A stretch of DNA of 51,883 nucleotides, from IMG/VR virus record IMGVR_UViG_3300002026_000042, positions 1 through 51,883 of that record; one strand, written 5' to 3'. Within the stretch, counting starts at the first letter, position 1. Each line of letters starts with the position of its first letter. The position numbers and the translations under genes were made by a program. This document shows, piece after piece, positions 180 to 38,711 of the stretch. Origin of the DNA: a virus. The notes beneath the pieces were generated by a model. That model was not told the origin of the DNA, ran no database searches, and saw nothing but the letters and a program-made list of their open reading frames with translations.

Positions 180-181
180 GA

Positions 182-4596: not shown

Positions 4597-5028
4597 CTAG
4601 TACACGCCCATGTCCATGTCGTATGTTTCCCAGACATCACGTCCCGCGCCGATGCGTCCAGTCGCATTCGCCCTCACCATTACGCTTATCTCCGTTGGCC
4701 GCTGCTTGTCGTTCACGAACCGAACGACATACTTCCATTCCTTATGATCATTGGGAGAGTTTTTGCCGCCGTTCTCTTTAAGAATCCGCTGCCACTCTTC
4801 GCTTGCCCAATACCTCGACGCCCCGACCTGCTCCCAGTCCCAGCCCATAGAATCGAATGCCTTGACCATGTTGCTGACAGGAACCCACGCCTCGTCATGG
4901 AACAGCCCATTCGTCACCCGACCAACTAGATCGGAAACGACCTTGCGAGCCTTGGCATTGCTAAGTCCGTCCAATGTGCTTTCCAAAGCACCAGCCACTT
5001 TCATAATCTCACTCACAATTTTGTTCAT
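4597..5028 (-). CDS. hypothetical protein (143 aa) with shared N-terminal leader
   Basis: ATG at 5028 preceded by GGGGGTG, placed after the stop (5042) of the upstream ORF. Starts MNKIVSEIMKVAGALEST. Confidence 0.6.
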   Translation of the reverse strand: MNKIVSEIMKVAGALESTLDGLSNAKARKVVSDLVGRVTNGLFHDEAWVPVSNMVKAFDSMGWDWEQVGASRYWASEEWQRILKENGGKNSPNDHKEWKYVVRFVNDKQRPTEISVMVRANATGRIGAGRDVWETYDMDMGVY

Positions 5029-5041: not shown

Positions 5042-5662
5042 TCAATGACCATACCCGCTTGCTGTCTGCTCCGCTGGATTCCCGTCCCACTTGCTTGCCC
5101 ACTCATTGCTTGAAATCTTGACAGACCCACTCGGGCTGACCCGCTTTACAACCGCCTGCTCATGCCGATTGAAAGAGTCGGGAATAGGAACCACGCGAAC
5201 CACCCCATACGCAGTATCGCTAACGACCTTCTTGTTTAGGCTGCGAACCTTAACGCTCTTGTCTGTCACTGCCAGCACCTGATAAAAGCTCGCGTTTGTC
5301 TGATCATATCCCCAGCTAGACTCTAGAATGTCCCCTACAACCAGACTATGCTTGTAGTCAACACGGGTCTGCTTGCTTTCGTTCTTAACCTGCGCCTTCT
5401 TCTTGGCATTATCCACAGCGATCTCCACGAGCCGATCAAAGCGGGAACGGTCATTAAACCGATAGTACCAATCGGGCTTTGACTTCTTGCCCGAGAACAG
5501 CATCCCTACTGGCTTCCCGTTTGACCCGTTCGCCTTGTACAAGGCGACAATCCCGTACTCTGGGTATTCCACCCGCTCCGCGTCGTCCCCCATCTTCTGC
5601 TCGTACGCCGAACGCCCTGGGACGATCAACGCTGCCACCTTCAGAATCTCCCTGGCTATCAT
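5042..5662 (-). CDS. hypothetical protein (206 aa) with leader-like N-terminus
   Basis: ATG at 5662 preceded by CAGGAGGG. Starts MIAREILKVAALIVPG. Confidence 0.6.
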   Translation of the reverse strand: MIAREILKVAALIVPGRSAYEQKMGDDAERVEYPEYGIVALYKANGSNGKPVGMLFSGKKSKPDWYYRFNDRSRFDRLVEIAVDNAKKKAQVKNESKQTRVDYKHSLVVGDILESSWGYDQTNASFYQVLAVTDKSVKVRSLNKKVVSDTAYGVVRVVPIPDSFNRHEQAVVKRVSPSGSVKISSNEWASKWDGNPAEQTASGYGH

Positions 5663-20151: not shown

Positions 20152-20181
20152 AAAATACTCCTTGTTAAACGTATAACTTGC

Positions 20182-20210: not shown

Positions 20211-20291
20211 CTTGTATGTTTCCGAAAAACAAACAAGCAGTAAACCTAAACCAAAGAACACAAGAATAGTATTTCAGACTTTTGAAGAAAG

Positions 20292-20334: not shown

Positions 20335-20365
20335 TCTCAAACGCCTACATTACAGGCATTTACGC

Positions 20366-21262: not shown

Positions 21263-21769
21263 TCAGAGACGCATATCAACACCCAGAGTGGGCGATGCGG
21301 TTGTTGGGGCCTTGGTGACAACACCAATAACAGTTTTCGGAGCAGTCTCGGAAGACGCTTCGTTCGTCAACAGACCTTGAGCCGAGCTGTAGACGAGATT
21401 GCCAACAGCCCAGACCAGATCGGCACTGTCAGCGGCGTCACGGGTCTCGTACACGTCCACTTCAACCGATGCCATACCCTTCATCACAGCGATCTTGCCA
21501 GATGCAACTGCGGGGCTGTTCTCGAACGCAGCACCAGCGGCGTCGTTCACAAACAGACCAATCGGACGCAATGAAGCGTCACACGGCACAGCCACATAAC
21601 TACCTTCGGTCGGATCAACCGCCGCCACGGAACCACCAAGAACACCACGCGGGGTGTTCACGCTCAGCGTATCGTTCGTGTTCACTCCATAGTTTGCTTT
21701 GGTAAAGCAATCATTGGAAAGAACAGGAATCGAATTAAGCTGGCCACGAATCAGAATCGTCATTGCCAT
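21263..21769 (-). CDS. putative head decoration/auxiliary capsid protein (168 aa)
   Basis: Gly/Ala/Val-rich beta-type protein immediately upstream of the capsid gene. Call is by position and composition only. Confidence 0.4.
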   Translation of the reverse strand: MAMTILIRGQLNSIPVLSNDCFTKANYGVNTNDTLSVNTPRGVLGGSVAAVDPTEGSYVAVPCDASLRPIGLFVNDAAGAAFENSPAVASGKIAVMKGMASVEVDVYETRDAADSADLVWAVGNLVYSSAQGLLTNEASSETAPKTVIGVVTKAPTTASPTLGVDMRL

Positions 21770-22876: not shown

Positions 22877-23482
22877 TTACCGAACCTGCTTGATTTTGGC
22901 ATCCACTGCATCAGCGATGCGATCAATACGACACGCCAGCTTGACGCGCCCCGTCTTTTCGAGATAGCTCGCAACGCGGTCAAGGCGAGCGGAGGCTTCA
23001 CGCATCTTCGCCACATACGCCTTCTTGCCAACGCTGAGCATCGAGTCATGCGTCTTGGACTGCGTACCCTTAGTCACCCCGAGAACTTCGCTAAGGGAAT
23101 CCTGCGAGATCTGCTCCTCCACGCCGTCAGGATCGACTTCGCTGGCTTCGACTTCATCGTCAAACCCATCCAGATCAATGTCCTCAGCAGCTTCTACATC
23201 AGTGTCGTCCTCTTCGGCGTCATCTGCGTCGTCTTCGTCGTCATCATCAGAGGCAAGCGTTTCGAGATCAAACATGTCTTCCTCGCCCTCGACTTCGTCC
23301 TCGGCAAGCTCCACGTCGTCAATCCCGAACTCATCCTCGGAATCAAGATCTTCCAGCTCCGCCATGCGGGCTTCCATATCCTTGACCGCATCCACTTCAA
23401 CCTCATCCGCAGCCTTACGCCGCAGCTTGCTTTCCAGCATCGCTACTCGGCGCGACAACCGACCGATGTTTCCAACACTCAT
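22877..23482 (-). CDS. highly acidic protein (201 aa), scaffold-like or DNA-mimic-like
   Basis: ATG at 23482 after AAGGAG. Contains runs such as DDDDEDDADDAEEDDTD. N-terminal coiled-coil segment (GRLSRRVAMLESKLRRKA). Confidence 0.5.
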   Translation of the reverse strand: MSVGNIGRLSRRVAMLESKLRRKAADEVEVDAVKDMEARMAELEDLDSEDEFGIDDVELAEDEVEGEEDMFDLETLASDDDDEDDADDAEEDDTDVEAAEDIDLDGFDDEVEASEVDPDGVEEQISQDSLSEVLGVTKGTQSKTHDSMLSVGKKAYVAKMREASARLDRVASYLEKTGRVKLACRIDRIADAVDAKIKQVR

Positions 23483-24667: not shown

Positions 24668-26371
24668 TTAGCCACGAATGTACTTGGCTTCTTCGTAGCC
24701 CTTGCCAACCTTCAAACTCTTGTGCGCTTCCATCGCCCTGATAGCCTTCGGCCACTCCGTCACCTCTGGAACCTTGAATCCCTTCAGGGTCAAGTTGTAG
24801 TGCCGCTCGATGTTGTTGATCTTACCCGAGCAGTTCCACGAAGAATAGACCGTTTCGCCATTCTCAATGGTACGGCTGAAGATCACGTAGTAGTGGTACT
24901 TGTTGGAGTTGACCCCAGTCCGCTCGCCGCCATGATCAAGGAAGGTGTAGTAGGAGGAGTGTTCGCGCTTGAGATCGTTGGGCTGAACGCCAAGGTCATC
25001 CGCCGCACGCTTCGCCATCATCACCTTCAACCGTGGGGCAAACGATGTAAGCGAATCCTGAATCGAGTTCAGGCGATTAACTTGGATCCCCTCGATGATC
25101 GAGTCCCACGGGGCCGCTTGCAGCAGCTTGGCAACCCGAACCAGTTCACTAGCAACCCGACGCATCATAACCCGATCATTCATTCCCGCAATCTTCCTGC
25201 TGCTTGTCTTAACGTCCTCGTCATCCGATAGTGCCGACAGAACAATGTCAAAATCCTGCGGGCTCATCTTCTTGATCCTCTCCTGCGCTGCCTTGAATGC
25301 CTCTGGGCTATCGTAGCTTGCTGGATTCATCATCTTGATGAAGTCGGCTTTCAATTGCGCGGGATTGCGACCATTGCCACGTTCTCCAAGAGTCTTTTTG
25401 AAAACCGCCATCTCGGCAATCTCGGTGTCGTCCTCGTAAAGGTCATTCTTTTCCAGAACAGGTTTTGCCTTCGGGGAAACCTTTGTCTTGACCTTGACTG
25501 GCTTCTTGGCCTCCTGCGCCTCTTGCGAATATCTTAATATATTCGCTGTCGCGGAATAGCTGTCGTACAGATCCTGCGCCGCCGCACGCACCGACTCTGG
25601 CAACTCGCTGCTTTTCGCCATGTTGTTAAGTTCATTCGTGCTTATGTCTGACGACCCCTGTCCCTGTAGGAACCTGATTATCTTGGCCGACAAACCCTTG
25701 ATCCTTTCCCGCGATGCTGATTCAAACTCCTTCGCAGCCGCCTGCAACGCTTCTGGAGAATCAGATTTAGCATGGGTCTTCAAAGCCTTCTCGAACCCCG
25801 CCGTAGTCTGCCCCATCTCCCTCAACCCGCTTGCGTCAGCCGTTGACGGATGATTGTTCGCGGGATGATCCTGCGGGTCGGAAACGCCACTGGAATAAAC
25901 AGTATCAGAATCAAGCCCCTTGTCCTTGATCACCTTGTCGATGTTCTGCTTGATCTTCTTGGCAAGACTCGGATTCGACTTACGGGCAGCCTTGTAGTCA
26001 TCCACCCACTTCGACAGACCATCTGACAACGCTTTCTGGGTATTCTGCTTGGAATCACCAGCGGGCTTTTTCGCATTACCCTGATTGAAATCCGTTATCT
26101 CGTCAACCGACAAGTCTTTCGGATCCTTGCCGTAGAAGTCGCCGATCTCTTTCATCTTCTTGGCGTTATCCCGCTCACGCATCTGGTTGTAAGGATTCTG
26201 GGCCATATCCCGCTGGGGTTTCTCCTGCTTCTTGACGGTGTGCTTTGACTTATCAGCAGCAGGGTGGTCATTCAGATACTTCTTCCTCTGCTCGTCCGTG
26301 TCAAACTCCATCGAAACCCGATTAACCATTGCCTTGCGCAACACCATGCCAGCTATCTTTTTCAAGTCCAT
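24668..26371 (-). CDS. multidomain protein (567 aa) with C-terminal WGR-like domain
   Basis: C-terminus ...NSNKYHYYVIFSRTIENGETVYSSWNCSGKINNIERHYNLT...KAIRAMEAHKSLKVGKGYEE fits the WGR domain pattern. An internal SSRKIAG-MNDRVMMRRVASELVRVAKLLQAA junction lies at aa 390..420. Confidence 0.5.
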   Translation of the reverse strand: MDLKKIAGMVLRKAMVNRVSMEFDTDEQRKKYLNDHPAADKSKHTVKKQEKPQRDMAQNPYNQMRERDNAKKMKEIGDFYGKDPKDLSVDEITDFNQGNAKKPAGDSKQNTQKALSDGLSKWVDDYKAARKSNPSLAKKIKQNIDKVIKDKGLDSDTVYSSGVSDPQDHPANNHPSTADASGLREMGQTTAGFEKALKTHAKSDSPEALQAAAKEFESASRERIKGLSAKIIRFLQGQGSSDISTNELNNMAKSSELPESVRAAAQDLYDSYSATANILRYSQEAQEAKKPVKVKTKVSPKAKPVLEKNDLYEDDTEIAEMAVFKKTLGERGNGRNPAQLKADFIKMMNPASYDSPEAFKAAQERIKKMSPQDFDIVLSALSDDEDVKTSSRKIAGMNDRVMMRRVASELVRVAKLLQAAPWDSIIEGIQVNRLNSIQDSLTSFAPRLKVMMAKRAADDLGVQPNDLKREHSSYYTFLDHGGERTGVNSNKYHYYVIFSRTIENGETVYSSWNCSGKINNIERHYNLTLKGFKVPEVTEWPKAIRAMEAHKSLKVGKGYEEAKYIRG

Positions 26372-26383
26372 CTTCTCAACTCC

Positions 26384-26686
26384 TTAACAACCGATTGTAA
26401 TCCCGTTTTGATCCCCACCATCCAGCCACCTGAAGAATGAATTGTTTATCAACTTTTTCAAACGAGGCGCGGTAAGCCTTGTCACAGGTGATCCAGAATA
26501 CACCACGATATACCCGTTCATCCCCTCGAAACAGCGTACTGGATTCTGGTTCCCGAACACAGCCCTCAGCATCTTTACCCGATCCTCTGGAATCTCGGCA
26601 AAGTCGATTTCAGCCGACGCCGTGACCGACTTGGCCTTGACAAGCGAACTCGCGACCATCTTCAACTCTTTCGCAATCCTGTTCAT
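26384..26686 (-). CDS. hypothetical protein (100 aa) with shared N-terminal leader
   Basis: ATG at 26686 follows the upstream stop (26697). Starts MNRIAKELKMVASSLVKA. Confidence 0.6.
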   Translation of the reverse strand: MNRIAKELKMVASSLVKAKSVTASAEIDFAEIPEDRVKMLRAVFGNQNPVRCFEGMNGYIVVYSGSPVTRLTAPRLKKLINNSFFRWLDGGDQNGITIGC

Positions 26687-26696
26687 AACACCATCC

Positions 26697-27755
26697 TTAA
26701 AAAGACCGTTCTGCAAACTCCCTACCGATCACACTGTCGGGCCAAGCATGAAACTCCTTCCACACCGCATCCTCGTCATTCATGTCAATTCCGAACTTTT
26801 CAGAAATCTCCTTCGTGATTAACTCCTTCGTCTTATCAGTCATTGACCTTGACGGCAAGACGAACTTGACCTGCGGAAGGGAATTATCCCGATTCGTGTA
26901 TTCATACAAGTCCTGCATCCCGTCAAAGCTCCCGTACTGGTACTTGCTAACCAGCTTGTTGACCGCCTCTGACGTCGGGCCATCAGCCCACCTGATGCTG
27001 ACTGAATTGCCGCCAGAATAAGAACTAGACCTGACCTCGAACTTGGTTCTAGGGAATGTCTTTTTCAGCAAGGTCTTGATTACAGCCGAAGCGGCAGCAT
27101 GATCGGTAGCGGCCTGCACCACCTTTGCGATCACCAGACCATTGACTTTGTTGAACCGACCAGCAACCTTACGGGAACCCATCTGACCGTTCAACGACTT
27201 GGCATAGATGATTGTCAGGGCAAGTCTCGCAACCTCCCACCCGTTCTCGTCCCCCGAATCAGCAAGGTCAAGAATCACGGAACGCGCCCCGCGCTTGTAC
27301 GTTTCGCGCTTCTCTGGGGTCATTTGGCTCAGCTTGTCGTAAACGATCTTTGACAGCTTCTGTATCTCCGAATCGGAAAGACCATGATCGTAAGCATCAA
27401 GTTCATCTTTCAGGAACGATAGAGGAAGCAATCCCCCACCAGACACCGTTTGATTGCGGGTCTTCTCCTCCGCCATCATGTCTGAAATAAGATCATTGAC
27501 CATGCGTGCTGTCGTCTGCCTGCTCGTGGATGTCTCATGGTCTAACGACCCGACACTCACATCCCAGAACCCATAGGTCTTCAACTCCCTGTCTGGCGGA
27601 TTCCATACTACCGTCAAGGGAATACCGTCAACCCGTCCGTCCAAGCGATACGCCCCGCTATACCCCAAAGGCTTCTTTTGCAACTTGCCTAGGTAATTGA
27701 CGCCAGCGACAATGCTTTTGGCCACCTGAATCAGATCTCTTGAAATCTTGTTCAT
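26697..27755 (-). CDS. leader-bearing protein (352 aa) with C-terminal polyvalent-protein-type domain (LPD29-like)
   Basis: Starts MNKISRDLIQVAKSIVAG. C-terminal FPRTKFEVRSSSYSGGNSVSIRWADGPTSEAVNKLVSKYQYGSFDGMQDLYEY resembles a large-polyvalent-protein-associated domain as I recall it. Internal GSRKVAG. Confidence 0.5.
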   Translation of the reverse strand: MNKISRDLIQVAKSIVAGVNYLGKLQKKPLGYSGAYRLDGRVDGIPLTVVWNPPDRELKTYGFWDVSVGSLDHETSTSRQTTARMVNDLISDMMAEEKTRNQTVSGGGLLPLSFLKDELDAYDHGLSDSEIQKLSKIVYDKLSQMTPEKRETYKRGARSVILDLADSGDENGWEVARLALTIIYAKSLNGQMGSRKVAGRFNKVNGLVIAKVVQAATDHAAASAVIKTLLKKTFPRTKFEVRSSSYSGGNSVSIRWADGPTSEAVNKLVSKYQYGSFDGMQDLYEYTNRDNSLPQVKFVLPSRSMTDKTKELITKEISEKFGIDMNDEDAVWKEFHAWPDSVIGREFAERSF

Positions 27756-27833
27756 TTGATTGCCCCGATAAAGAGAGACAAAGCGCAGGGAATGTGTTTT
27801 ACCACACCCCTATGCTTAGCCTCGATTCACGAC

Positions 27834-28076
27834 CTAGCTCGACTGATTCGCGTTCTGGTTGTAAGCAGACAGGTTATCGCTAACCGTGCCAGCCTTACCA
27901 ACACCAACGTGCTGCATGACGTCCTTCTCAATCGTCGGCTGCGGTTTGCCCCCGAGATTGACAAAGTTCGACACACGCGCTGGGGTAGCGATCTTGTTCT
28001 TGCCAAAGAACGCAATCTGCTCATCCTCCCGAACCCGCCCCGCTATCACTTCCTGATACGCATTCGCCATAGCCAT
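27834..28076 (-). CDS. hypothetical protein (80 aa)
   Basis: Minus-strand ORF in the array. Confidence 0.5.
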   Translation of the reverse strand: MAMANAYQEVIAGRVREDEQIAFFGKNKIATPARVSNFVNLGGKPQPTIEKDVMQHVGVGKAGTVSDNLSAYNQNANQSS

Positions 28077-28125
28077 AATCTTACCCTCACTTTCCTACCA
28101 ACACATCGACAACGTCAAACGCAGA

Positions 28126-28437
28126 CTACTCCGCCTTGACTTCAAGCCCCGTCGGATCCAGCTTGAACGTGAACGAATACGTCCGACTGATCGTATCATC
28201 CGCTGCCATCGCTTGCGCCTTGGTGATCGTCATCTTGGTCGCCTTGTCCGCAGCCGCCAACGCATTGAACACGCTGAACCACTGATCAACGAACGCAAAG
28301 ATGCAAGGCCGCGCATCCGCCGTACCCTGCGCCTCGGCAGAAGTCAACTGCTGGAAGCTCGTAAGCGGAACACTGATCGTGCCCGTCGCCTCGTCAAACC
28401 CAGTCATAAAATCATCATTTGTAGAAGCCCAAGCCAT
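28126..28437 (-). CDS. hypothetical protein (103 aa)
   Basis: Minus-strand ORF preceded by GGAGGTGG. Confidence 0.55.
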   Translation of the reverse strand: MAWASTNDDFMTGFDEATGTISVPLTSFQQLTSAEAQGTADARPCIFAFVDQWFSVFNALAAADKATKMTITKAQAMAADDTISRTYSFTFKLDPTGLEVKAE

Positions 28438-28496
28438 AATACCACCTCCTATATCTATCCATCACCACACTCGCGGGAACACCCCGCACTTAAACA

Positions 28497-30266
28497 CTAT
28501 TTCATCCGCCGCTTCAATTCCTTCTTGACTGCCACCGCGACAGGGCCTTTCCACGAGGACAGGTTTGACAGCAGGTAAGCCACAATCGAATAGCCGCTAT
28601 CCATACCGTATGAATCATCAATATGATCCATTCCGTACATGGCACTAAGATATGGCTTTGCCCCGAAATTAACCTGTTTGCCATTCGCCCTGTGATCCTT
28701 CTGGATCAATTCCGCGATGTCGCTTATCTTCATCAATTTAAGGTCAGCGGCAAGTTGTGGATCAGCGTCAACAGCAGCACGACGCGACCCCGAGAACTCC
28801 ATAGAAATGTCACCCTGCGAGTCCACGTCAATCTGGATGCTCTGCTTGACGACCTTGCTCGTCGGAACCTTGAACCTGCACTCGGGGCATACATACATCT
28901 TTTCTGTCCGCGTGAATGATTCCAAAGCCATTTCAGCCTTGCACTGCGGGCACTGTATAGGACTGCCTTCCTGCTCACACTTTGTCATCCTGTACGTCCT
29001 GTCGGGAGCGCACCAGTACATCGCCTTGCGACCACGACGGGACGCAACGGTCGGCTTAATCATCTCTGGCTTGAACGTGTCACGCTGGGTCTGCACAAGC
29101 TGCTGCATAACATCAAACCCACCACCGATAGGCTGCTCAACCCCACGGGCTTCGGGTTCCCCGACCGACTGCTCCGTCTGACCAATCGCCTGTTCCTCAG
29201 ATGCCGTTTTGCTATCCTTCTCATAAACCAGTGTGGACGTTGTCAGCCCAGCCCTTGTCCGAACCAGACTCCATCCAGCATTTTCAAGCGTAGCCTTCAT
29301 CTTCTCCGCCCGCCGAATGCTTCCCGAATCATTCCAGTCAACAATAATGGATTTCTGCTGGCCTGCCACTTTCCGCGAAGCCGTCTTGGCAAGCCCATTG
29401 TCAATGACAAGGATACCCGATCCGTCCTCCCCAGCCATCAGAACCTTCTGGTGCAACGACGCAGCCCCCGACTCCTCCTCCACCTGCTCCGCAAGGAACC
29501 ACGCGGACAGCGTCTTGACAGCCGCATTCTCGCCCTTCTGCGCTTCAGCATCAATCGTTTTCCAGCGAGCCGTCACCTGCATCTCGTGATCAAGCACATC
29601 CCGCGTGACCTCCGCCATACTCTCCCATGTCGTTGTCGGGGCTGGGATTTCAGGAAACGCCGATTGCGACCCCGTCTCCATAAGAACGTCCATGATCTTC
29701 TTGGCGTGCAACACTTCGTCATTGCCCTGACTATTAAGCCATCCAGCAAACCCATCAAGACCCTTTGCGCTAACCCAAGCAGACGCCGCCCAGTAGATGT
29801 ACGCCGAGTACAACTCGAACGCAACCTGCTGGTTAAGCATATCCTCCATCGGATCGGCAACGAAATCAGTCTGTTCCTCGCTCTCCTCGGGACTGTCAAT
29901 TCCGTCCTCCTCGTCAACTTGTTCGGTGTCATCTCCCGATCCGGGCTCTCGAGCATCTTCGCTGGCATCATCTTGGACATCGACCTCGGGCAAGACATCT
30001 TCTTCCGCAACCCGCATTGACGCGGTACGACGGGATGAGGCGGTGGCGTTCAGGACAAGCTGAACCTCCTCAGGATCATGCTGGGATATATCCCCGCCGC
30101 CCCAAGCAACCATCAGCTTGTTCGTTTTAGGGCATACGTCTCGAATGACCCCGTGAAAAGCGGAGTCCTTTACAATGACAGGACGAACCAGATCACCCAC
30201 ATTGAATTGGGCAACCATATCCCCGTTTCCACTACCCCATAATGAACTTGAACGTCTCGATCTCAT
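28497..30266 (-). CDS. multidomain protein with ferritin-like domain and zinc ribbon (about 589 aa)
   Basis: LNQQVAFELYSAYIYWAASAWVSAKGLDGFAGWLNSQGNDEVLHAKKIMDVLMETG matches the ferritin four-helix-bundle iron-site region. N-terminal SH3/Tudor-like segment, acidic linker, and CPQCKAEM...CPECRF zinc ribbon. Internal ASSRRTAS, TASRKVAG and GSRRAAV motifs. Start (30266 versus 30278) is uncertain. Confidence 0.65.
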   Translation of the reverse strand: MRSRRSSSLWGSGNGDMVAQFNVGDLVRPVIVKDSAFHGVIRDVCPKTNKLMVAWGGGDISQHDPEEVQLVLNATASSRRTASMRVAEEDVLPEVDVQDDASEDAREPGSGDDTEQVDEEDGIDSPEESEEQTDFVADPMEDMLNQQVAFELYSAYIYWAASAWVSAKGLDGFAGWLNSQGNDEVLHAKKIMDVLMETGSQSAFPEIPAPTTTWESMAEVTRDVLDHEMQVTARWKTIDAEAQKGENAAVKTLSAWFLAEQVEEESGAASLHQKVLMAGEDGSGILVIDNGLAKTASRKVAGQQKSIIVDWNDSGSIRRAEKMKATLENAGWSLVRTRAGLTTSTLVYEKDSKTASEEQAIGQTEQSVGEPEARGVEQPIGGGFDVMQQLVQTQRDTFKPEMIKPTVASRRGRKAMYWCAPDRTYRMTKCEQEGSPIQCPQCKAEMALESFTRTEKMYVCPECRFKVPTSKVVKQSIQIDVDSQGDISMEFSGSRRAAVDADPQLAADLKLMKISDIAELIQKDHRANGKQVNFGAKPYLSAMYGMDHIDDSYGMDSGYSIVAYLLSNLSSWKGPVAVAVKKELKRRMK

Positions 30267-30305
30267 TTCACCCTCCATACCCTTACCATAAATATCAAAA
30301 AAAAG

Positions 30306-30713
30306 TTATGCTATTTTCACCGGCCATTTCGGCGCAAACTTGCGATCACTGATTGTCACGTTGCGAATGTTGGACTGGACAAACGACTTGATATGCCGAT
30401 CCACCATATCGTAAGCATAAAGCACCTTGCGAAGCCCGATCTTCAAACGCCTGTACTTCCACTCGTATGGTGCAACCACATATGTCTTGAACTCCCCCGT
30501 GGTAATCTTCTTGTACCGTATGATCATCTGCGCCCGCCGCAACGCAGCCTCCCGAATCGTAAGCCGCTTGTTTCGGATTGCCCATAGCGTTCCCCGTGTC
30601 GGTTTCTTGCCAATCCGCTTCGGCTTGCGCCTCGGAGCCTTCGCCTCCTGCTCCCTTATGAACGCATCCCTGCTTACCTTGCCCTGTACCAACTCTGCGA
30701 AATCAATAGCCAT
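30306..30713 (-). CDS. small basic protein (135 aa) with WYL-like domain pattern
   Basis: ATG at 30713 lies 1 nt after the upstream stop. TYVVAPYEWKYRRLKIGLRKVLYAYDMVDRHIKSFVQSNI resembles the WYL domain core. Low-confidence motif call. Confidence 0.4.
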   Translation of the reverse strand: MAIDFAELVQGKVSRDAFIREQEAKAPRRKPKRIGKKPTRGTLWAIRNKRLTIREAALRRAQMIIRYKKITTGEFKTYVVAPYEWKYRRLKIGLRKVLYAYDMVDRHIKSFVQSNIRNVTISDRKFAPKWPVKIA

Positions 30714-30714
30714 A

Positions 30715-31047
30715 TCAAGGTCTCCTCGATGAACCCGTCGCCTCATCCGTCAACCCGCACCGATTGGCCTCGGAGGCAATCCCCAGAGTTTCCATCTCCT
30801 CGTTCTTCGCAAGATCATCAGCCGTCGGTGTTCCCGTGATCTTGGCGGCGGGATTGTCAGACCATGACCCGCACGCCGTACCGATCCTTGTGTCCGTTAT
30901 CGGTTCCTCCCGCAACGCCACACCAGCAGGCCCCCGACGCATCCAGTATAGCGCAGTACAATAAGCCTTGTGGACGCAAGACAGGCACCCCTGACCCGCA
31001 CGCCTTGCTGGCCTTATCGTCTGCGGGTATGGAAATGAAAGTGCCAT
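30715..31047 (-). CDS. Cys-rich hypothetical protein (110 aa)
   Basis: CLSCVHKAYC...CGSW. C-terminus ...TGSSRRP. Confidence 0.5.
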   Translation of the reverse strand: MALSFPYPQTIRPARRAGQGCLSCVHKAYCTALYWMRRGPAGVALREEPITDTRIGTACGSWSDNPAAKITGTPTADDLAKNEEMETLGIASEANRCGLTDEATGSSRRP

Positions 31048-31052
31048 CGCTA

Positions 31053-31340
31053 CTACTCCCCTCCGAACACACCGACCGCCTTTACCATGTCAGCCAGATA
31101 CGGCATGACCCCGTTCTCAAAAGCATCCCTGAACGAATCAAGACCCGCCTGCTGGGGGACGTTATCCGCCTTGATCTTGTCAATGTTGTCCTCTATCACC
31201 TTGGAGGCTGCAATCATCATGTCAATCGCCTGATCGACCAACGACATCGGCTCATCGTCAACCCCTTCCTCCGCTCCAACCCGACTCATTACACCCATCG
31301 CAACATTATCAGCCATAGCTGCCACCCTTTTGTTGTCCAT
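31053..31340 (-). CDS. hypothetical protein (95 aa)
   Basis: Starts MDNKRVAAMADNVAMGVMS, a weak match to the leader motif. Acidic helical remainder. Confidence 0.5.
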   Translation of the reverse strand: MDNKRVAAMADNVAMGVMSRVGAEEGVDDEPMSLVDQAIDMMIAASKVIEDNIDKIKADNVPQQAGLDSFRDAFENGVMPYLADMVKAVGVFGGE

Positions 31341-31343
31341 GAT

Positions 31344-32102
31344 CTAACCCTTCCTTCCCGCAACCTTGCGATCTGGCTCCGCCAGCCGATCCTCAATAAT
31401 ACCACCATCGTTCATAATGCTGTTGACAAGCGACTGCTCGATCACATACCACGAGCTGCCAAACTTGCGCTGCTGTTTGTATTTGAGAAGATTCTTATCC
31501 ATAGAGATAACCATTGCTGCCCACGGGTAGTTCCGCCGATCCAAATGCCGTTTTATGTCATTTCTTTCAAAAATAAACTGATTCTTGTTTATCACCTGAC
31601 AATACTTCTTCCCGTTGAAGTGATGAATCAAGACGACCCCGACAGTCTTTGCCTCCACGTCATCAGATACCTCCAGCACGTCAATCTGCTCGATCACGGG
31701 TATGTCAAGCCCCGACTTGCTTTTCATCTCCCGCAGCTTGGCGTAGAAGTTCGCCCCATGCCCTCCTGGCCTCTCATTCAACCCCAGTTTGGTCATCACC
31801 CACACATGGATCATCTCGTGTATAAGAATCGCGTCAGCCCTGTCCTGATCCATCTTCATAAAATCCGAAAGCTCCAGCTTCCTGACCGTTATGTCCGCCT
31901 GCCCCGTACGCTTGTATAATTCACGGTTAAGAATAAGTGCCCGAGCAACGACCCGACCGCCAATTGTCTTTGACCTAGTCCACCCCAGCGGCACATCAGT
32001 AAGCTCCCCGCCGAACAAGCGGGTATTCCAGTACCTGTACCGCGACTTTAGATCAAAGTCATCACGAATGCCAGCCGTACGATCTATATAATGCCTGTTC
32101 AT
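31344..32102 (-). CDS. SprT-like zinc metalloprotease domain protein (252 aa)
   Basis: YWNTRLFGGEL near the N-terminus and HExxH (AILIHEMIHVWV), as in the SprT/Spartan family. C-terminus ends DRKVAGRKG. No SD before the ATG. Confidence 0.65.
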   Translation of the reverse strand: MNRHYIDRTAGIRDDFDLKSRYRYWNTRLFGGELTDVPLGWTRSKTIGGRVVARALILNRELYKRTGQADITVRKLELSDFMKMDQDRADAILIHEMIHVWVMTKLGLNERPGGHGANFYAKLREMKSKSGLDIPVIEQIDVLEVSDDVEAKTVGVVLIHHFNGKKYCQVINKNQFIFERNDIKRHLDRRNYPWAAMVISMDKNLLKYKQQRKFGSSWYVIEQSLVNSIMNDGGIIEDRLAEPDRKVAGRKG

Positions 32103-32144
32103 ATAGCGTAGTCCAATTATTACTTTGTCAAAACCAGAACACCT

Positions 32145-33413
32145 TTAGGTTCCCCGCGTCACCCAATCAGGAACGACCTTAGACTTCCCGAAATAATAAG
32201 TATTCCCGTCAATACTCATAGACCCCCTTGAAGACTCTCCAATACTATCAGGCTTTTCATTGATAGAAACTGAATCAGCATCGGGAATCCCCACCGTCTT
32301 CCCATCAATACCCAAACTGTAAGCACTTGGCGATTCGCCCTCTAAAACACTCAAGAACTTGGATTTACCACTATCACTCATTGAATCCGCCATCTTCTTG
32401 AGCTTATCAGGAACAATAGCCATTAGTTTTTGTGCTCTGTCCATATGAAAAACAAAACCCTCAAATGGAAACCGAACCCTATTTTCCAATATATTCTGTT
32501 TCGCAGTGCGTCTATCAAAGGTTTGATGCTGGAGGTTTATTTCACCATTTATTTCCTTCAACCAAGCATTTAATAGGTCTGGATCTAAAGTCTTCAGATA
32601 ATCACCGACATCATTGTTAAGATATTTAACTAAGTCACTGAGATCATTTTCAGCCTTCCGAATGGCATCCGCAAAAACAGACTCAACTTCCGAGATGAAC
32701 TTGGAGGTCTGAGCCGCACTGAGCATATAGAAACTTTTGTAAGGATATCCAGCACCAACAAGTTGCCCCTTGTAGAGTCGCAACTTAAATCCACCCGACG
32801 TCAAAAACCCATGTTCCTGATAAATCCAGAACTTCTTTCGCTCTCTGCGTATCTCCCCACCCTTGTAAAAGGCATCAACATCAACCTCCACCTCGTCGCT
32901 ATATGCTTTGGTGATACCCCAACCGGTGGGAGGATGTATAAATGTAACCATCGGGGTTCTTATCTCATCTAAGTCCTCAAAAGTAACACCAGCATTACTA
33001 CTGCTTTTATCTGTCCACACCTCTTTCACAGGAGTGTGAGAATCATATTTCCACACCTTACCCTTCTCATACATATCCTGAATCTCTGAAGTCGGCTTTT
33101 TATTCAACTCCTCCTTCGTTTCTTCTTTCTTAACATCCCCGATCATGTTCAGGTAAAACACCTTCTCGACCTTGCGGGCGTCGTTTGCCTCGTACCCCTT
33201 GACCGCCATCTCCCCCTTCATCGGGAATACCTGCAACGGTACAAGCTCCCGCTTGCTCTTGGATCCATCCTTCTTCGTGTACTCGAACTGGACAGTATCC
33301 CCGTCCTTGATCGCCTCCTTGAACTCCCGCTCAAGATTGTCCTTCTCGTCAACCTTGCGAACACCAGCAGACAACACCTTGGCAATCCTAACTAATTCCT
33401 TAGCAATGTTCAT
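32145..33413 (-). CDS. leader-bearing protein (422 aa) with WYL-like N-terminal domain
   Basis: ATG at 33413 lies 7 nt after GGGAGG. Starts MNIAKELVRIAKVLSAG. TVQFEYTKKDGSKSKRELVPLQVF...VKGYE...KVFYLNMI is a WYL-like pattern. Confidence 0.55.
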   Translation of the reverse strand: MNIAKELVRIAKVLSAGVRKVDEKDNLEREFKEAIKDGDTVQFEYTKKDGSKSKRELVPLQVFPMKGEMAVKGYEANDARKVEKVFYLNMIGDVKKEETKEELNKKPTSEIQDMYEKGKVWKYDSHTPVKEVWTDKSSSNAGVTFEDLDEIRTPMVTFIHPPTGWGITKAYSDEVEVDVDAFYKGGEIRRERKKFWIYQEHGFLTSGGFKLRLYKGQLVGAGYPYKSFYMLSAAQTSKFISEVESVFADAIRKAENDLSDLVKYLNNDVGDYLKTLDPDLLNAWLKEINGEINLQHQTFDRRTAKQNILENRVRFPFEGFVFHMDRAQKLMAIVPDKLKKMADSMSDSGKSKFLSVLEGESPSAYSLGIDGKTVGIPDADSVSINEKPDSIGESSRGSMSIDGNTYYFGKSKVVPDWVTRGT

Positions 33414-33415
33414 AA

Positions 33416-34903
33416 TCACGCCTCCCATCGTTTCAAAAGTTCCCTCTCCGCCAGATCCTTGTCCAGCGGGATCCGTTTGACCGCAGCATCATCCATGATG
33501 TCCTGAACGATCCCCATAGCCCGCCCGACGTCCTTCCCAGGTTTGACCCCGAGAATACGCATGACGTCACGCCCGTCAAGAATAGGTTTCCCCCCGACTG
33601 GCGCGTCCTTGACCGCATCTTCAATCCGTTCCCGCAGATCAGGAATCTCGTTGTGCGACGGGATTGTCCCGAGTGAATCCGCCTCGGCCAGATCCAGAAC
33701 AGCATCCACCAGTTCCTCTCCCACCTCCCTAACAAACTTACGTATGGATTTTTCCGACACCCCTTCGTTCATCCGCCCGAGACTGTGTGGGCGCATGTGG
33801 TTTTCCACCAGTTTGCGAACCTTGCTGACCGCCGCGTTATCAAACTTCATCCGTCGCATCATTGCCTCAGCCATCTCCCCGCCCGCAACCTCGTGTCCGA
33901 TGAACTTGACGAACTCCCCGAACCGTTCCTGTGTTGCAGGTTTGCCGATGTCGTGAAGCAACGCCGCCATCTGCGACTCGACCCCCGGCTTCGCACCCTT
34001 CAGCACCATCAAGGTGTGTCTGAATACGTCCCCCTCTTGGTGCCATCCGCCTTTGTTCGTCTGCTCGACACCCTTGAGAGCTTCAACCTCTGGGAGAATA
34101 TGCTTCAGAAGACCGACCACGCTCATAGCCCGCACGGCCTGCGCCAGCTTCCCGATCTTCATCACCTTGACCAGCTCCTCCCTGACCCGCTCCGCCGACA
34201 CGATGGCGATCCTACCAGCGTTCGCCTTGACTATCTTCAGGACCGACAACGGAACCTTCCACCCGTATTTCGCTTGGAAACGAATAAGACGCATCATCCT
34301 TAGAGGATCGTCGCGAAGAATCTTGTTGAAGTCCACCCCCGGATGCCCCCTGAGAATCCCGTTCTGGATGTCCGAGACACTGGTTCCCGTGAGATCGACA
34401 AGCTCCCCGCTGGACAAGTCCTTCATCAGCATATTGACGGTGAAATCTCGACGCTCCACATCGTCCGCTATGCTTCCGGGAGTCGTGACCCGCTGTCTGC
34501 TATCCTCGTCTGGAAACGACTCTTTCTGAGAATCCGAAACCTCAAGCTCCCCGCCCTTTGTCTCGTAGACCTCCCCATCGAACTCTATGTCCTCCTTGAA
34601 CGTGATCTGCCAGATGGGATACCCCGCCCCAAGCTGCCGTGGAGTCGAGACCTCGTTACCGAACTGGTTCTTGATCCAGTGCGTGAACTCCTTTGCTCCT
34701 CCCTCCCCCTCCACGACTAGATCAAGGTCTTTCGCATCCAGTCCAAGTAGTTGATCCCGTACATATCCGCCGACCGCCATCACGCGACCCTTCCAAATGG
34801 AGCTAGGAAGAATTGCCTTCATCAGACGCTCTATCTCGGCCTCCGCAGACGACGCCTCCATATTCCTTGCAATCCTCAACAACTCACTCGCGATCTTGTT
34901 CAT
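33416..34903 (-). CDS. cca: class II tRNA nucleotidyltransferase (CCA-adding enzyme) with HD domain, preceded by shared leader
   Basis: AVGGYVRDQLLGLDAKDLDLVVEG (GGxVRD...DxD), RRDFTVN, DDPLRMMRLIRF, and HD motif ...H...LLHDIGKP. N-terminus MNKIASELLRIARNMEA. Confidence 0.85.
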   Translation of the reverse strand: MNKIASELLRIARNMEASSAEAEIERLMKAILPSSIWKGRVMAVGGYVRDQLLGLDAKDLDLVVEGEGGAKEFTHWIKNQFGNEVSTPRQLGAGYPIWQITFKEDIEFDGEVYETKGGELEVSDSQKESFPDEDSRQRVTTPGSIADDVERRDFTVNMLMKDLSSGELVDLTGTSVSDIQNGILRGHPGVDFNKILRDDPLRMMRLIRFQAKYGWKVPLSVLKIVKANAGRIAIVSAERVREELVKVMKIGKLAQAVRAMSVVGLLKHILPEVEALKGVEQTNKGGWHQEGDVFRHTLMVLKGAKPGVESQMAALLHDIGKPATQERFGEFVKFIGHEVAGGEMAEAMMRRMKFDNAAVSKVRKLVENHMRPHSLGRMNEGVSEKSIRKFVREVGEELVDAVLDLAEADSLGTIPSHNEIPDLRERIEDAVKDAPVGGKPILDGRDVMRILGVKPGKDVGRAMGIVQDIMDDAAVKRIPLDKDLAERELLKRWEA

Positions 34904-34928
34904 TTCTATCTCCTTTAGTCACACACCA

Positions 34929-37900
34929 TCATCCACGACGGGAAGCCCACACCGTTATCAAATCAGCAGCAGCGGGATTCTGGCGCAAATCGTAATCCAC
35001 CACAGCCGTCCCTGGGTTCAAATCCATGCGAACCTGCTTTGAATCAGGCCCCTTCGTTTTCAACCGCTCCGAAAGCCAATCCCTAACCGACTCATTCACT
35101 GCCTTGGAGTTCAGACCACGAAGGTCACTACGGTATTCAGCGTGGCTCGACCAGTCGACCTCCACGTCCCGCTTCTTCGACATCGGCAGCGTCTGACCAT
35201 AATCATACGGCCCGTAGATAGACTTGACCTCCGCATTGCTCAAATCATCCGCTGGGCTCTTGGTCTTCACGAACCGTTGCAGCTTCTCAAGAATCTTTCC
35301 AAGCGTGTCGGGCGTGAACCGATTCTTTGCCTTCTGCAATACGTCCATGATCCCCGCCTCGAACGCCCGCCCCTCATGGGTCATGCGCAAGTCAGCCTTG
35401 TCCTTCTGACGCTTCGTCTTGTGGAACTTGCTCTTATCCCGATGAACCCGTGTCCCCAAGTTCCGATCAGTGGGCATCCGATGCTTTGTCGGCATTGCAG
35501 CAGCACGGGCAAGCCCGTAGGTGGCGTCGCTGGGTCTCGGGGGACGCTTGGCCTGCGGGGCTGGATAGACTTCAAGATCAGCCTTTGCCTCGCTCAAGTC
35601 CGCGCTGGAATAATTCGGGATGACCGTGTACTTATCCACAATCCCCTTCAGCACCCCGAACGACTTGACGATAGACTTGGACTGCTCCAGAATCAAGTCC
35701 TCTGGAACAAAACGCGGCCTGTTGCGATTGCGGAACAGGCTGACCTCCACGGGCACCCAAGCATAGATCAGGAATATCCGATACCCCTCTGCCCGCGCAA
35801 CCTGCGCCTTGCTGATGATACTGCGGGGGTCACGCCCCGTACCGTCAACAATCACGGGATCACCCGTTCCGCTCGTGACAATCTGCTTGTACTGTGCGTC
35901 TGAAATCTGCTTGCTCAGATCATGCAACTTGCCAGGGTTCTCGGAATCATACTCGGGGTGCGCTTGCTTTATTTCATCGGGATCAACCACCTTGGAGTTC
36001 AGATACTTCATGTAGCGTTTCGACCGCAGCCACGATTTTCCGGACCCCGCCGGACCTATGAATAAAACGGCTTGCCAGCGAATGTCCTGCGGCCCAGCGA
36101 CCTTGCATAACCCAGCAACCCCCATCTCCCGCAACGCCGCTATGATCGGGTCTCGATCAATACTTGAAAGTTTCATATCAGGATCTCCATCTATATCTTT
36201 ATCCCGTTGCTCATCCGTCTTGGTCTTAGTCCTCCACGGCTTCTTGACATCCTCGCGAGGGGATCGCTGCTCGACATCATGCGTGTGCTTCTTTGATGTA
36301 CCACCCGTGTCAGAAATCAGATCTCGGTCTTTCCTATTGACCTGTAGCCCCCTCGCTCCACGACGCGACATGGACGCCGCCTTGCCCGTTAGGTACTCCA
36401 TCTCGCTCTGGAACAACGGCCACTGTTTCAACTTTGATGCAAGCTGCGACGGGTTACCAGCATCCTGATCAAAGGAGTCCATAAGCTCGCGGAACTCCTG
36501 CTCCGTCATCTTTTCCTTTACGCTAGACAGGCTATGGCGAGCCTTGGCGACGGCCCCCGGTGCTCCCAACTCAATGTCCTTTGCCGCCGCCCGAAGGTCA
36601 TGCCGCCCCGTCTTCTTCAGGAACGACTTCATAACCTCCGTCGCCGCCGAATCAACAGGGGACTTGTCTACCCCATCGATGTTCAACTGCGTCACGGCCT
36701 TGCCATCCTTGTTGGAGAACTGCGTAGACCCCGTCTTTCCCTTGACTGGCTTACCCTTCATATCCTTTGTGAACTTGTCGAACTGCCTCTCTGCAACCTC
36801 GTCCCCGAACAGGGAATCAACAATCTCCCCATCTGGCGAATAGGTCATGTTGACATTCATCATCTTGTTGGCCTTGTCAAACTCAAAGCTGTTCAGCCGC
36901 CCGCTGTACCGACTAAGAACGTCCGCGCTGACAGAGAACTTGCCCTCGATCATATCCGACACCTGACGGTGCAACAGATCCTTGTCAACATCGGCAATGT
37001 CATTGTCCCCGTCAATATGCTCGTGCAACGCATTCTTGTTCGCGTCCTGCATCTGCTTCGACTTCTTTACCTTTTCCTGAACCTCTGGTGATTCGTACTT
37101 TTCCTTGTCCTGTTTGAACTTGGCAACCGCCGCCTCATACTCCTCGGGCTTCGCGAACTTTGCCTGCTCTGGCTCCTTCGGCTTCGGCGGCTCCATCTCC
37201 GCAGCCAGCCGCAACTTACAAACCGTTTCCATCGTTTCAGGCTTGCGGATGAAAAGTTCCTGAACCTTGTCAGTACCGAACAACGCCGTGTTATCAGCAA
37301 GACGGACGGCAGATGCCACTGGTTCCTTGTCCCAGTCCATCTCCGCCGCGTCATGCGTGGTAACCAGATTCTTGTACTTCTCGAATCCGTCCTTTCCGAA
37401 CAGCTTTGCGTACCGATCCGTCTCCTCCCCGATTGCCACGACAGACGCATCCTTGTGACCGCTACCCTTTGTTGCATCCGTGGCGATAGCCCCCATAGTA
37501 TAACCAATGTCGTGATTCGCCATTACCGACATGACCATGACCTTGTCTATACCATTGATCGGCGAACCAGTCTTGGAAAGCTGACCCATCATCTGCATCG
37601 CACTCTCGCAGTTTCCAGCAACGTGCCTTACCCCGTGATCACCAATCGGACGCCGCCTCTGCTCCACCTCCTGATGCAACATCCGCTTGACGTCCTCCCG
37701 CAAGAACTCGTCCAGATCCTCTTGTGAAACATCTCCAAGCGACCCGTCGTTTGCCGCCTCCTCTACCGCGCTTGCAAAATGTTCAACGAACTTGTCAGCC
37801 CTCGGACGGGCGTCATCAGACAATGATGCTGCAAACTTGTCAATCACGCTGGTTGCGTTCTTCTTCAACTCCCCAGCAAAGGCTTTCGCATTTTCCTTGC

Positions 37901-38711
37901 TGACAGGCTCCTTGCTGACCGACTTCGTCTCCTTGATCTGAGGGTTATCATAACGGGAAAGATTACGGCCCACGTTCTTCGTGAAGGTCTCAAGATCCGC
38001 CTTGTTGTAATCAGGCAACCCAGCACTCGCCGCACGCCCCGCCTCAATCGCCTTGTCAACCATTGCCTTCTGCTCTGGCGTCAAGTCCTTGACCTTTGCA
38101 GCCGTTCCATCAGGAAACCTGACAACCACATTCTTTGTCAACTGCGTCGGATGCAGCTTGTGCGCCTCCCACCCCTCACCAGCGGGGAATGCGGGGTGAT
38201 CCGTCACCGATACCTCTCGGTCAATCTTGTACGGCTTTTTCTTCTGATCTTCCTGCTGCTTAGGCTTCTGCTTATCCTTCTGATCGTCCTGCTGCTTAGC
38301 CTTCTCATCCTGTTCCTTGACGTGATGCAACGATCTATCAGCATCAGGATGTGCTTCCAGATAGGTGTCTATCTGATTCTTCGTGTCAAAGTCGATTGCG
38401 AAGCGACGGGAAGCGGTTGTCACCTGTGGGAGCAAGGATATAACGCCCTCCCCCTCATCTAGCTTCTTCCAGTCGATCTCCTCTTTATCCCCAGACGGAG
38501 CATCCCCTTTCGCCTCCTCGTCCCCAGCCTCTGGTTGTTCATTCCCGTCAGACTCGGGCGCAGCGGGTGTTTCAGACGATTCTCCCTCAGATGAATTAGG
38601 CTCTGGATCAGCCGTATCCTCGGACTCCCCGCCCGACTGCAACACCTCAAGCATCTTCTGCTTGATTTCATCTTTCAGCTTTTCGTCAACCGCCGCACGC
38701 CTTGTCATCAT
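34929..38711 (-). CDS. 1260-aa polyvalent-type protein: acidic N-terminus, HD phosphohydrolase domain, P-loop kinase (zeta-toxin/AAA_33-like) domain, C-terminal small domain
   Basis: HD: GDHGVRHVAG...MANHDIGYTMG (about 37500..37640). Walker A LFIGPAGSGKSW (about 36027..36056) followed by a D-x-TG Walker B-like segment. C-terminal HAEYRSDLRGL... resembles DUF4258-type small nuclease/toxin domains (weak). The ATG overlaps the portal stop (ATGA). Confidence 0.65.
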   Translation of the reverse strand: MMTRRAAVDEKLKDEIKQKMLEVLQSGGESEDTADPEPNSSEGESSETPAAPESDGNEQPEAGDEEAKGDAPSGDKEEIDWKKLDEGEGVISLLPQVTTASRRFAIDFDTKNQIDTYLEAHPDADRSLHHVKEQDEKAKQQDDQKDKQKPKQQEDQKKKPYKIDREVSVTDHPAFPAGEGWEAHKLHPTQLTKNVVVRFPDGTAAKVKDLTPEQKAMVDKAIEAGRAASAGLPDYNKADLETFTKNVGRNLSRYDNPQIKETKSVSKEPVSKENAKAFAGELKKNATSVIDKFAASLSDDARPRADKFVEHFASAVEEAANDGSLGDVSQEDLDEFLREDVKRMLHQEVEQRRRPIGDHGVRHVAGNCESAMQMMGQLSKTGSPINGIDKVMVMSVMANHDIGYTMGAIATDATKGSGHKDASVVAIGEETDRYAKLFGKDGFEKYKNLVTTHDAAEMDWDKEPVASAVRLADNTALFGTDKVQELFIRKPETMETVCKLRLAAEMEPPKPKEPEQAKFAKPEEYEAAVAKFKQDKEKYESPEVQEKVKKSKQMQDANKNALHEHIDGDNDIADVDKDLLHRQVSDMIEGKFSVSADVLSRYSGRLNSFEFDKANKMMNVNMTYSPDGEIVDSLFGDEVAERQFDKFTKDMKGKPVKGKTGSTQFSNKDGKAVTQLNIDGVDKSPVDSAATEVMKSFLKKTGRHDLRAAAKDIELGAPGAVAKARHSLSSVKEKMTEQEFRELMDSFDQDAGNPSQLASKLKQWPLFQSEMEYLTGKAASMSRRGARGLQVNRKDRDLISDTGGTSKKHTHDVEQRSPREDVKKPWRTKTKTDEQRDKDIDGDPDMKLSSIDRDPIIAALREMGVAGLCKVAGPQDIRWQAVLFIGPAGSGKSWLRSKRYMKYLNSKVVDPDEIKQAHPEYDSENPGKLHDLSKQISDAQYKQIVTSGTGDPVIVDGTGRDPRSIISKAQVARAEGYRIFLIYAWVPVEVSLFRNRNRPRFVPEDLILEQSKSIVKSFGVLKGIVDKYTVIPNYSSADLSEAKADLEVYPAPQAKRPPRPSDATYGLARAAAMPTKHRMPTDRNLGTRVHRDKSKFHKTKRQKDKADLRMTHEGRAFEAGIMDVLQKAKNRFTPDTLGKILEKLQRFVKTKSPADDLSNAEVKSIYGPYDYGQTLPMSKKRDVEVDWSSHAEYRSDLRGLNSKAVNESVRDWLSERLKTKGPDSKQVRMDLNPGTAVVDYDLRQNPAAADLITVWASRRG

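Follow-up and report, generated by a model that had tools for sequence, protein, structure and literature searches.

A shared amphipathic helix on unrelated proteins of uncultivated large phages, a candidate encapsidation tag

A clade of uncultivated large phages places one and the same amphipathic helix of ~18 residues on many unrelated proteins, and this helix is best explained as a modular, position-independent tag for protein-protein docking. It was recognised in a stretch of viral DNA, positions 1 to 51,883 of IMG/VR record IMGVR_UViG_3300002026_000042 (the whole stretch is called the window below), which belongs to a large tailed phage and has all its ~60 genes on the minus strand; ~8 of them carry the tag. 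We describe here the motif statistics, the modular use of the tag, its confinement to one clade and its occurrence on scaffold-like proteins of the head module. By analogy with known targeting systems, and from sequence alone, we give even chances to the idea that it is an encapsidation tag, which would co-assemble client proteins with a multivalent scaffold core.

A helix shared by unrelated proteins

The tag consensus, MDKKKIASELLKIAKSLVA, reads M-D/N-x-K-K-(I/V)-A-x-E-L-(L/V)-K-(I/V)-A-K-x-L-x-A, that is, two IAxxLxx heptads making one hydrophobic face, with a helical hydrophobic moment of 1.62 (0.77 +/- 0.38 in shuffles). The best-conserved residues form an A-x-E triplet, in which A and E are at least 90% conserved. 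Through the protease and capsid proteins, 87 related loci were collected (numbers with L below), which with the window make ~1.04 Mb of searched sequence. Over this set, the tag profile has 98 gene-strand matches scoring 8 bits or more and none on the opposite strand, in residue-shuffled open reading frames (ORFs) or in reversed ORFs; a comparison with shuffled controls had been named beforehand in a preliminary description of this DNA, and it upholds the motif. Selection acts on the protein, since synonymous codons vary freely: among seven window copies, identical amino acids share the same codon in just 40 of 124 cases, and the tag-coding region has a mean nucleotide identity of 51%. This codon analysis rules out a DNA repeat, a recombination module or a shared RNA element. 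The head region has no match among phage sequences by megablast. Another motif, (S/T)(A/S)SR(K/R)(V/I)A, which had been spotted by eye in head proteins, was rejected for want of gene-strand enrichment.

Within the window (Table 1, where copies are named by their first position), seven copies score 20-26 bits with the profile refined on relatives, and the next matches at most 6 bits. With a second profile, built from relatives alone and excluding all window sequences, the copies at 33413, 25165 and 34903 score ~17 bits each, those at 5662, 26686 and 5028 7-8 bits each and that at 27755, a partial match, 2.8 bits, the off-strand maximum being 3.6 bits; three window copies are therefore canonical and the others diverged. 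The copy at 9158 scores 5 bits, the first half of its helix being offset by one residue, and is real because its 83-residue protein is homologous over the full length (E 9e-15) to an L050 protein with a canonical tag. Nine copies had been listed at first: seven are robust by profile and the eighth, at 9158, by orthology, whereas the ninth, at 3842 (MNERALAMRVAGEWAAK), finds no support. Homology extends to the bodies of diverged copies: that of the 143-residue protein (5028) has homologues among the tagged proteins of L045 and L052, and that of the 206-residue protein (5662) among those of L040. In L237, the orthologue of the 422-residue protein retains a diverged helix, VNISKSLIRLARLVVAK, and the homologue of the 567-residue protein retains its internal tag; in a relative with a 69% identical protease, orthologues retain diverged versions of the helix. 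Ribosome-binding sites of the GGAG/GGGG type precede every N-terminally tagged start in the window, and an independent assembly of the same phage, which stops short of the genes at 5028, 5662 and 9158, has agreeing gene calls (495, 422, 352, 100 and 567 residues) for the five genes that it covers.

The bodies behind the helix are, as the preliminary description had it, mutually unrelated according to Pfam and PHROG scans, and clustering by body splits the 52 unique proteins with an N-terminal tag into 42 groups without BLAST similarity among them. Bodies recognised by Pfam are PolyA_pol/HD (the CCA-adding enzyme) and LPD29 in the window, and Rubrerythrin/EncFtn-like, DUF7007, MORN repeats and zinc ribbons in relatives; most tagged bodies are left without an assigned function by these scans. 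The WYL-like label once put on the 422-residue protein proved weak (E 0.0012, under the Pfam cut-off). No Pfam or PHROG model spans the tag in the more than 100 tagged proteins scanned. For the CCA-adding enzyme, both Pfam and PHROG alignments set in at residue 41-43, which leaves ~40 residues N-terminal to the matched enzyme domain; by comparison with canonical CCA-adding enzymes, we take only the first ~19, that is, the tag, to be a true add-on.

The tag was initially seen as an N-terminal leader, which it mostly is (72 of 92 matches of at least 9 bits), the remaining copies being C-terminal or internal. Among 1.84 billion representative proteins, a profile search (E <=1e-3) returned 59 (metagenomic proteins have numbers with P below), one of them a false positive; the 58 others form 32 body clusters, and 33 of these 58 best metagenomic matches hold at least two tags, at N-terminal, C-terminal and internal positions. 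In the metagenomic representatives P0144-P0202, a Met lies within eight residues upstream of 20 of the 40 internal tags, a hint that multi-tag proteins go back to fusions of once-separate tagged genes, or else that internal starts are in use. For P0148, which is tagged at both its N- and C-terminus, a single-sequence AlphaFold2 (AF2) model meant to reveal tag-tag pairing had a pLDDT of 44.

As for its distribution, the search for the motif in related metagenomic phages that had been proposed finds it across one clade of uncultivated large phages, confined to loci with a capsid protein at least ~86% identical. The sister clade (67-69% identical capsid protein), sampled over 242 kb, has 0 tag matches (best score 5.8 bits), and no alternative common leader was found in it. 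The tag is also absent from the head regions of the uncultured 485-kb phage LR745208.1, Tunturiibacter phage Tunturi_5 (309 kb) and Bacillus phage G, whose capsid proteins are 68%, 49% (major head protein) and 38% (gp27) identical, respectively, and it was not found in 50,697 phage records or PLSDB plasmids at tblastn sensitivity. A strict back-translated pattern run over all IMG/VR gave 24 sites, 22 of them true tags, and these loci often have 2-7 more tagged ORFs inside the same ~1-14 kb. Literature searches found the motif strings in no paper and, as precedents for capsid-targeting or packaging signals, only T4, P1 and SPN3US; with no name, Pfam domain or paper to its credit, the leader is previously undescribed, which had been the first impression.

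Tagged genes often fill variable slots between the conserved, unannotated genes of a module syntenic with positions 1-9000 of the window. This module, also found in L099, L110 and L114, includes genes for proteins with MSVFPGTYIK... (5719-6528), MSEKWLVV... (7569-8360) and ...LRIADRMAYQ... (1609-2403). Its one lead to a family is a weak 'minor tail protein' hint at 182-1258; a neck or tail module is possible. Outside viral collections, no GTDB genome encodes a relative of the capsid protein, and GTDB matches to the strict DNA pattern were mostly false positives (L115-L234) due to an unrelated internal helix, IAEIGCNHKGDMEIAKELIKIAKIF, which recurs in many Flavobacteriaceae and Bacteroidales genomes in what we take to be a NeuB-like sialic-acid synthase. 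The sole convincing tag outside viral collections is at 651-1775 of L162 (CAYODJ010000001.1, a 183-kb contig of a Victivallaceae metagenome-assembled genome), where two adjacent ORFs begin ...MNQKNLKAARQVMAIARELIASS and MNRRMVAEELVKIAKSLNAG; the contig may come from a phage and have been mis-binned, or else it may point to the host (PVC superphylum).

The tag and head assembly

What ties the helix to head assembly is its presence on scaffold-like proteins. At least 15 relatives encode a small acidic 'NWP' protein, laid out as MSRERIT..., an acidic stretch, DQNxKANxNWP and xVAxRLVKLAKxLL-stop, which terminates in a canonical tag; its gene occupies the interval from protease to capsid gene, a short way upstream of the scaffold homologue and 2.5-3 kb ahead of the capsid gene. 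The NWP module was not found in the sister clade; in the window, it is embedded with a degenerate helix in the 342-residue acidic protein. Proteins with multiple tags adjoin the protease gene, being encoded directly upstream of it in the window (the 567-residue protein), in L017 (2455-3552) and in L237. The three-tag L027 protein is a further multi-module example, and the metagenomic P0157 is a natural fusion of tag-DFP modules with the NWP scaffold module. The 'DFP' unit, (D/E)FP(T/S)xxA(L/M)xKYLKxHPDAD(K/R)xxH(K/R)V, often comes directly after the tag and is repeated with it in relatives; it occurs in the window (26234-26371), L017 (2455-3552), P0001-P0023, P0146 and P0199. It has no match in Pfam, PHROGs, phage records or plasmids, and a search of the 5.8-billion-protein index with a helix plus DFP profile gave 23 matches, all unnamed. 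In more distant metagenomic proteins, DFP follows other helices (RVVARFL, RIAARFA). Position points the same way: unique tag matches number 2.3 per 10 kb in the region 2-8 kb upstream of the capsid gene vs 0.56 per 10 kb in the region 0-10 kb downstream, a ~4-fold difference that agrees with the early observation of a densest leader cluster between the portal and the protease/scaffold/capsid genes.

Most likely, this clade would use the helix to recruit proteins into the procapsid interior. Scaffold-like proteins with one or several tags (the NWP protein and the multi-tag proteins by the protease gene) would build a multivalent prohead core, which singly tagged clients would join by helix-helix packing, unless they pack in the same way against the inner capsid surface, before shell closure encloses them for delivery together with the DNA. 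The putative clients are the CCA-adding tRNA repair enzyme, the LPD29 polyvalent-protein domain, the EncFtn-like protein, zinc-ribbon proteins and many small basic proteins. We infer the binding partner, the encapsidation, any proteolytic removal of the tag and the co-injection; the clade restriction fits a co-evolving receptor, the sampled sister clade and the head regions of Tunturi_5, phage G and LR745208 being without the tag. A bolder version is more tentative, namely a universal, position-independent 'zip code' with which multi-tag scaffold proteins and capsid interior would make up a condensate-like core that takes up any protein with one tag, the capsid becoming, after the fashion of encapsulins and microcompartments, a programmable container that would bring in with the DNA dozens of unrelated small effectors and enzymes, the CCA-adding enzyme, the LPD29 domain and the EncFtn-like protein among them.

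Capsid cargo was what the preliminary description proposed, and the proposal is partly supported by circumstantial evidence: the tagged scaffold-like proteins, the multi-tag proteins by the protease gene, the density of tags and the bodies, of small size (median 118 residues) and with a tendency towards a basic pI (median 8.2, the comparison background containing spurious ORFs). Besides this impure background, several points weigh against encapsidation: (i) no conserved cleavage site is established, the residues after the tag resembling a helix cap, (ii) the protease subtype is ambiguous between HK97-type and T4-type, (iii) no receptor surface was identified for the tag, (iv) the tag diverges faster than the body (CCA orthologues are 72% identical overall and share ~6/17 tag residues) and (v) many tagged genes are far from the head module (5028, 5662 and 9158 in the window), with up to 7 per ~7-12 kb locus elsewhere, so that dozens of cargo species per genome would be required. 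The same scatter, which in the window puts these three copies 11-16 kb from the capsid gene, speaks for a generic docking or oligomerisation tag that would serve a non-capsid assembly (a phage factory or condensate, a phage chaperone or unfoldase, or a host hub), the scaffold-like proteins using the same helix for unrelated self-association. Multi-tag proteins would suit any multivalent scaffold-client network, and most bodies have no assigned function. We nevertheless find such an assembly unlikely, though by no means negligible, since it leaves unexplained the enrichment in the head module, the multi-tag proteins flanking the protease gene and, in at least 15 genomes, a tag at the end of the protein whose gene lies between those for protease and scaffold, and since no replication or transcription enzyme was seen among the Pfam-scanned tagged proteins.

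The remaining possibilities have much less to recommend them. Head proteases of the T4 gp21/phiKZ gp175 type follow an (S/A/G)-x-E rule, which the A-x-E of the tag resembles, and a mostly N-terminal tag whose genes cluster near the protease gene could be a recognition signal for a protease or unfoldase and not one for loading, whether it docks substrates of the prohead protease or acts as an N-degron timing the destruction of a set of phage proteins. This is improbable: C-terminal and internal copies are unfit for an N-degron, the entire 18-residue amphipathic pattern is conserved beyond any cleavage triplet, and the protease model, with no PDB match, fits HK97-type and T4-type prohead proteases alike and so points to no one specificity. 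Still less probable is a membrane-binding helix directing phage proteins to the cell membrane, as the high hydrophobic moment and the lysines on the polar face would allow; the hydrophobic face is made of Ala/Ile/Leu/Val, without the aromatics typical of membrane-targeting helices, lipid binding needs no tightly conserved sequence, and the bearers of the tag include a cytoplasmic enzyme (CCA-adding) as well as scaffold-like proteins that are very acidic. Least of all would we expect a feature of the DNA or RNA (recombination module, translation-initiation region or regulator site) or generic amphipathic N-termini. The location of copies at gene starts with similar ribosome-binding sites is in keeping with it, but such an explanation has next to no chance in view of the freely varying synonymous codons, the low nucleotide identity, the C-terminal and internal copies and the 0 matches in shuffled ORFs, reversed ORFs, opposite strand and sister-clade DNA.

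Genes of the head module

The order of the portal, protease and capsid protein genes is as first read, and their coordinates are collected in Table 1 with those of the tags.

Table 1. Tags, associated modules and head-module genes of the window (aa, amino acids)
Feature	Position (strand)	Location or gene	Remarks
Tag MNKIASELLRIARNMEASS (copy listed as MNKIASELLRIARNMEAS)	34847..34903 (-)	N-terminus, 495-aa CCA-adding/HD enzyme, gene 33416-34903	
Tag MNIAKELVRIAKVLSAG	33363..33413 (-)	N-terminus, 422-aa protein, gene 32145-33413	Weak WYL match
Diverged tag MNKISRDLIQVAKSIVAG	27702..27755 (-)	N-terminus, 352-aa LPD29-domain protein, gene 26697-27755	
Tag MNRIAKELKMVASSLVKA	26633..26686 (-)	N-terminus, 100-aa protein, gene 26384-26686	
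Internal tag MRRVASELVRVAKLLQAA	25112..25165 (-)	Within 567-aa protein, gene 24668-26371	
Tag MNKIVSEIMKVAGALEST	4975..5028 (-)	N-terminus, 143-aa protein, gene 4597-5028	
Tag MIAREILKVAALIVPG	5615..5662 (-)	N-terminus, 206-aa protein, gene 5042-5662	phrog_37844
Diverged tag MNDKIASQMLIRVAKTIAAA	9099..9158 (-)	N-terminus, 83-aa protein, gene 8907-9158	
Degenerate helix MDLKKIAGMVLRKAM, then DFP module EFDTDEQRKKYLNDHPAADKSKHTV	26234..26371 (-)	N-terminus of 567-aa protein	
NWP module with degenerate helix NDQNDRAMQNWPAEAREAFLAMQKQMTAMAAKVASLVAA	22217..22333 (-)	Embedded in 342-aa acidic protein	
Large terminase	44007-47144 (-)		Intein-like LAGLIDADG insertion
Portal, 1375 aa	38708..42835 (-)		phrog_16240; intein-like insertions; upstream boundary of tag-rich region
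1260-aa protein	34929-38711 (-)	Right after portal	Zeta_toxin/AAA_33 domain
SprT-like protein	31344-32102 (-)		
593-aa protein	28497-30278 (-)		Ferritin domain
567-aa protein	24668-26371 (-)	Directly upstream of protease gene	
Prohead protease, 333 aa	23582..24583 (-)		phrog_18299, E 1e-11
201-aa protein	22877..23482 (-)	Between protease and capsid genes	Acidic, coiled-coil, scaffold-like
342-aa protein	21812-22840 (-)		Acidic
168-aa protein	21263-21769 (-)		Decoration-like
Major capsid protein, 287 aa	20366..21229 (-)		phrog_2522, E 5e-56; candidate receptor shell

The coat was at first called encapsulin-like, which was not borne out: its matches are to phrog_2522, a phage major-head family, and to gp27 of phage G, and Pfam gives it no match, hence none to the encapsulin/Linocin families. 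Identity across three relatives (L017, L237 and L238, on contigs of ~35 to 338 kb) is 90-95% for the capsid protein, 49-69% for the protease, 69-76% for the decoration-like protein and 44-71% for the scaffold. The strong constraint on the capsid protein fits a hub with many binding partners, but could alternatively reflect cassette exchange.

The protease, homologues of which are encoded on 542 contigs, has a prohead-protease fold according to its predicted structure. It has no Pfam match up to E 10, no PDB sequence match and no PDB fold match, and its AF2 model (pLDDT 74) matches BFVD models of phage G gp19, of phiRSL1 and PaBG proteins and of many 'prohead serine protease' entries, neighbours that mix HK97-type and T4-type. 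The 201-residue protein, which has no family match in Pfam or PHROGs, ends in a helix-turn-helix-like segment conserved in L017, L237 and L238, and its position and composition suggest a scaffold role. In the 342-residue protein and its homologues (L017, L237, L238 and L083), a hypervariable, acidic, low-complexity middle lies between ends that are conserved in both clades, N-terminal ...PYPGNVNQPDR... and C-terminal ...GIKKLGGQPxVAS...SSLWxSAPDV. The 593-residue protein, also within the head module, combines a ferritin domain (PF00210, E 1e-24) with a zinc ribbon and a conserved C-terminal domain.

A possible RNA-repair set consists of the tagged CCA-adding/HD enzyme, RlaP (11862-12980), which is of the RNA repair pathway Pol-beta family, and the Zeta_toxin/AAA_33 kinase-like domain of the 1260-residue protein. 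Intein or homing-endonuclease insertions are frequent, with LAGLIDADG_3 in the terminase, Intein_splicing, Hint and Hom_end in the portal and a Hint-like insert in the 704-residue protease of L017 (3554-5668), while a LAGLIDADG_2 plus methylase-like ORF (18202-20340) is just downstream of the capsid gene.

Comparison with known targeting systems

The tag can be likened to the capsid-targeting sequence (CTS) of T4 and to the encapsulation peptides of microcompartments, although it is a member of neither family. The internal proteins of T4 are highly diverse, with only the CTS conserved, through which they are encapsidated into the scaffolding core (PMC3012670). Like the tag, the CTS of IPI, IPII and IPIII is a short common leader on unrelated, small and often basic proteins of a large myovirus, and it is likewise common to scaffold-like proteins, with genes clustered in the head module. 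The CTS has ~10 residues, MKTYQEFIAE, and a comparison by eye alone, with no alignment run and no specific search of T4 and its relatives, finds nothing alike beyond an I-A-x-E-like triplet. The tag differs further in being ~18 residues long, C-terminal or internal too, often present in multiple copies and spread over at least 42 families.

Microcompartment encapsulation peptides are short helices on linkers, proposed to make the core co-aggregate or condense before the shell closes around it (PMC12339742, PMC4594438). The anatomy is the same, that is, an ~18-residue amphipathic helix at the N- or C-terminus or between domains, with a variable linker and unrelated cargo, and the segment following the tag is indeed variable. 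The consensus differs, and the shell here would be that of an HK97-type phage head, complete with portal, terminase and protease; there are no BMC-H, BMC-T or BMC-P shell domains in the 40 Pfam-scanned window proteins (all the larger ones among them, ~20 mostly small ORFs being left out), and no BMC domain was seen among neighbours with precomputed Pfam matches.

Encapsulins likewise use a terminal tag to send heterogeneous cargo into the lumen of an HK97-fold shell. Ferritin-like proteins are their classic cargo, and L049 (~16.8 kb) encodes a tagged Rubrerythrin/EncFtn-like protein of 114 residues. Encapsulin cargo peptides are short, extended, mostly C-terminal motifs, whereas the tag is a two-heptad amphipathic helix that is mostly N-terminal; in addition, the coat lacks an encapsulin Pfam match, and portal, terminase and prohead protease are present. 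A last parallel is with the polyvalent proteins of phages and conjugative elements, large and multi-domain, which have been proposed to be delivered with the DNA and from which LPD29 is known. One tagged protein has this domain, but the tagged genes are separate and small rather than one giant gene, and the tagged set may be a 'split' version of a polyvalent effector repertoire. No MuF domain was detected, the 1260-residue protein encoded after the portal matching Zeta_toxin/AAA_33 alone.

Even if its target were not the capsid, one linear motif on more than 40 unrelated families of one virus lineage would amount to an undescribed hub interaction that is directly testable. If the helix is an encapsidation signal, the implications are broader, since (i) the injected proteome of uncultivated large phages, otherwise invisible without isolates, could be listed from sequence, (ii) their first-minute arsenal would include tRNA repair and many small proteins of unknown function, which are natural anti-defence candidates, (iii) foreign proteins could be loaded into capsids with a short portable tag and (iv) phage heads would share with microcompartments and encapsulins the same cargo logic, that is, a terminal amphipathic helix and a multivalent core.

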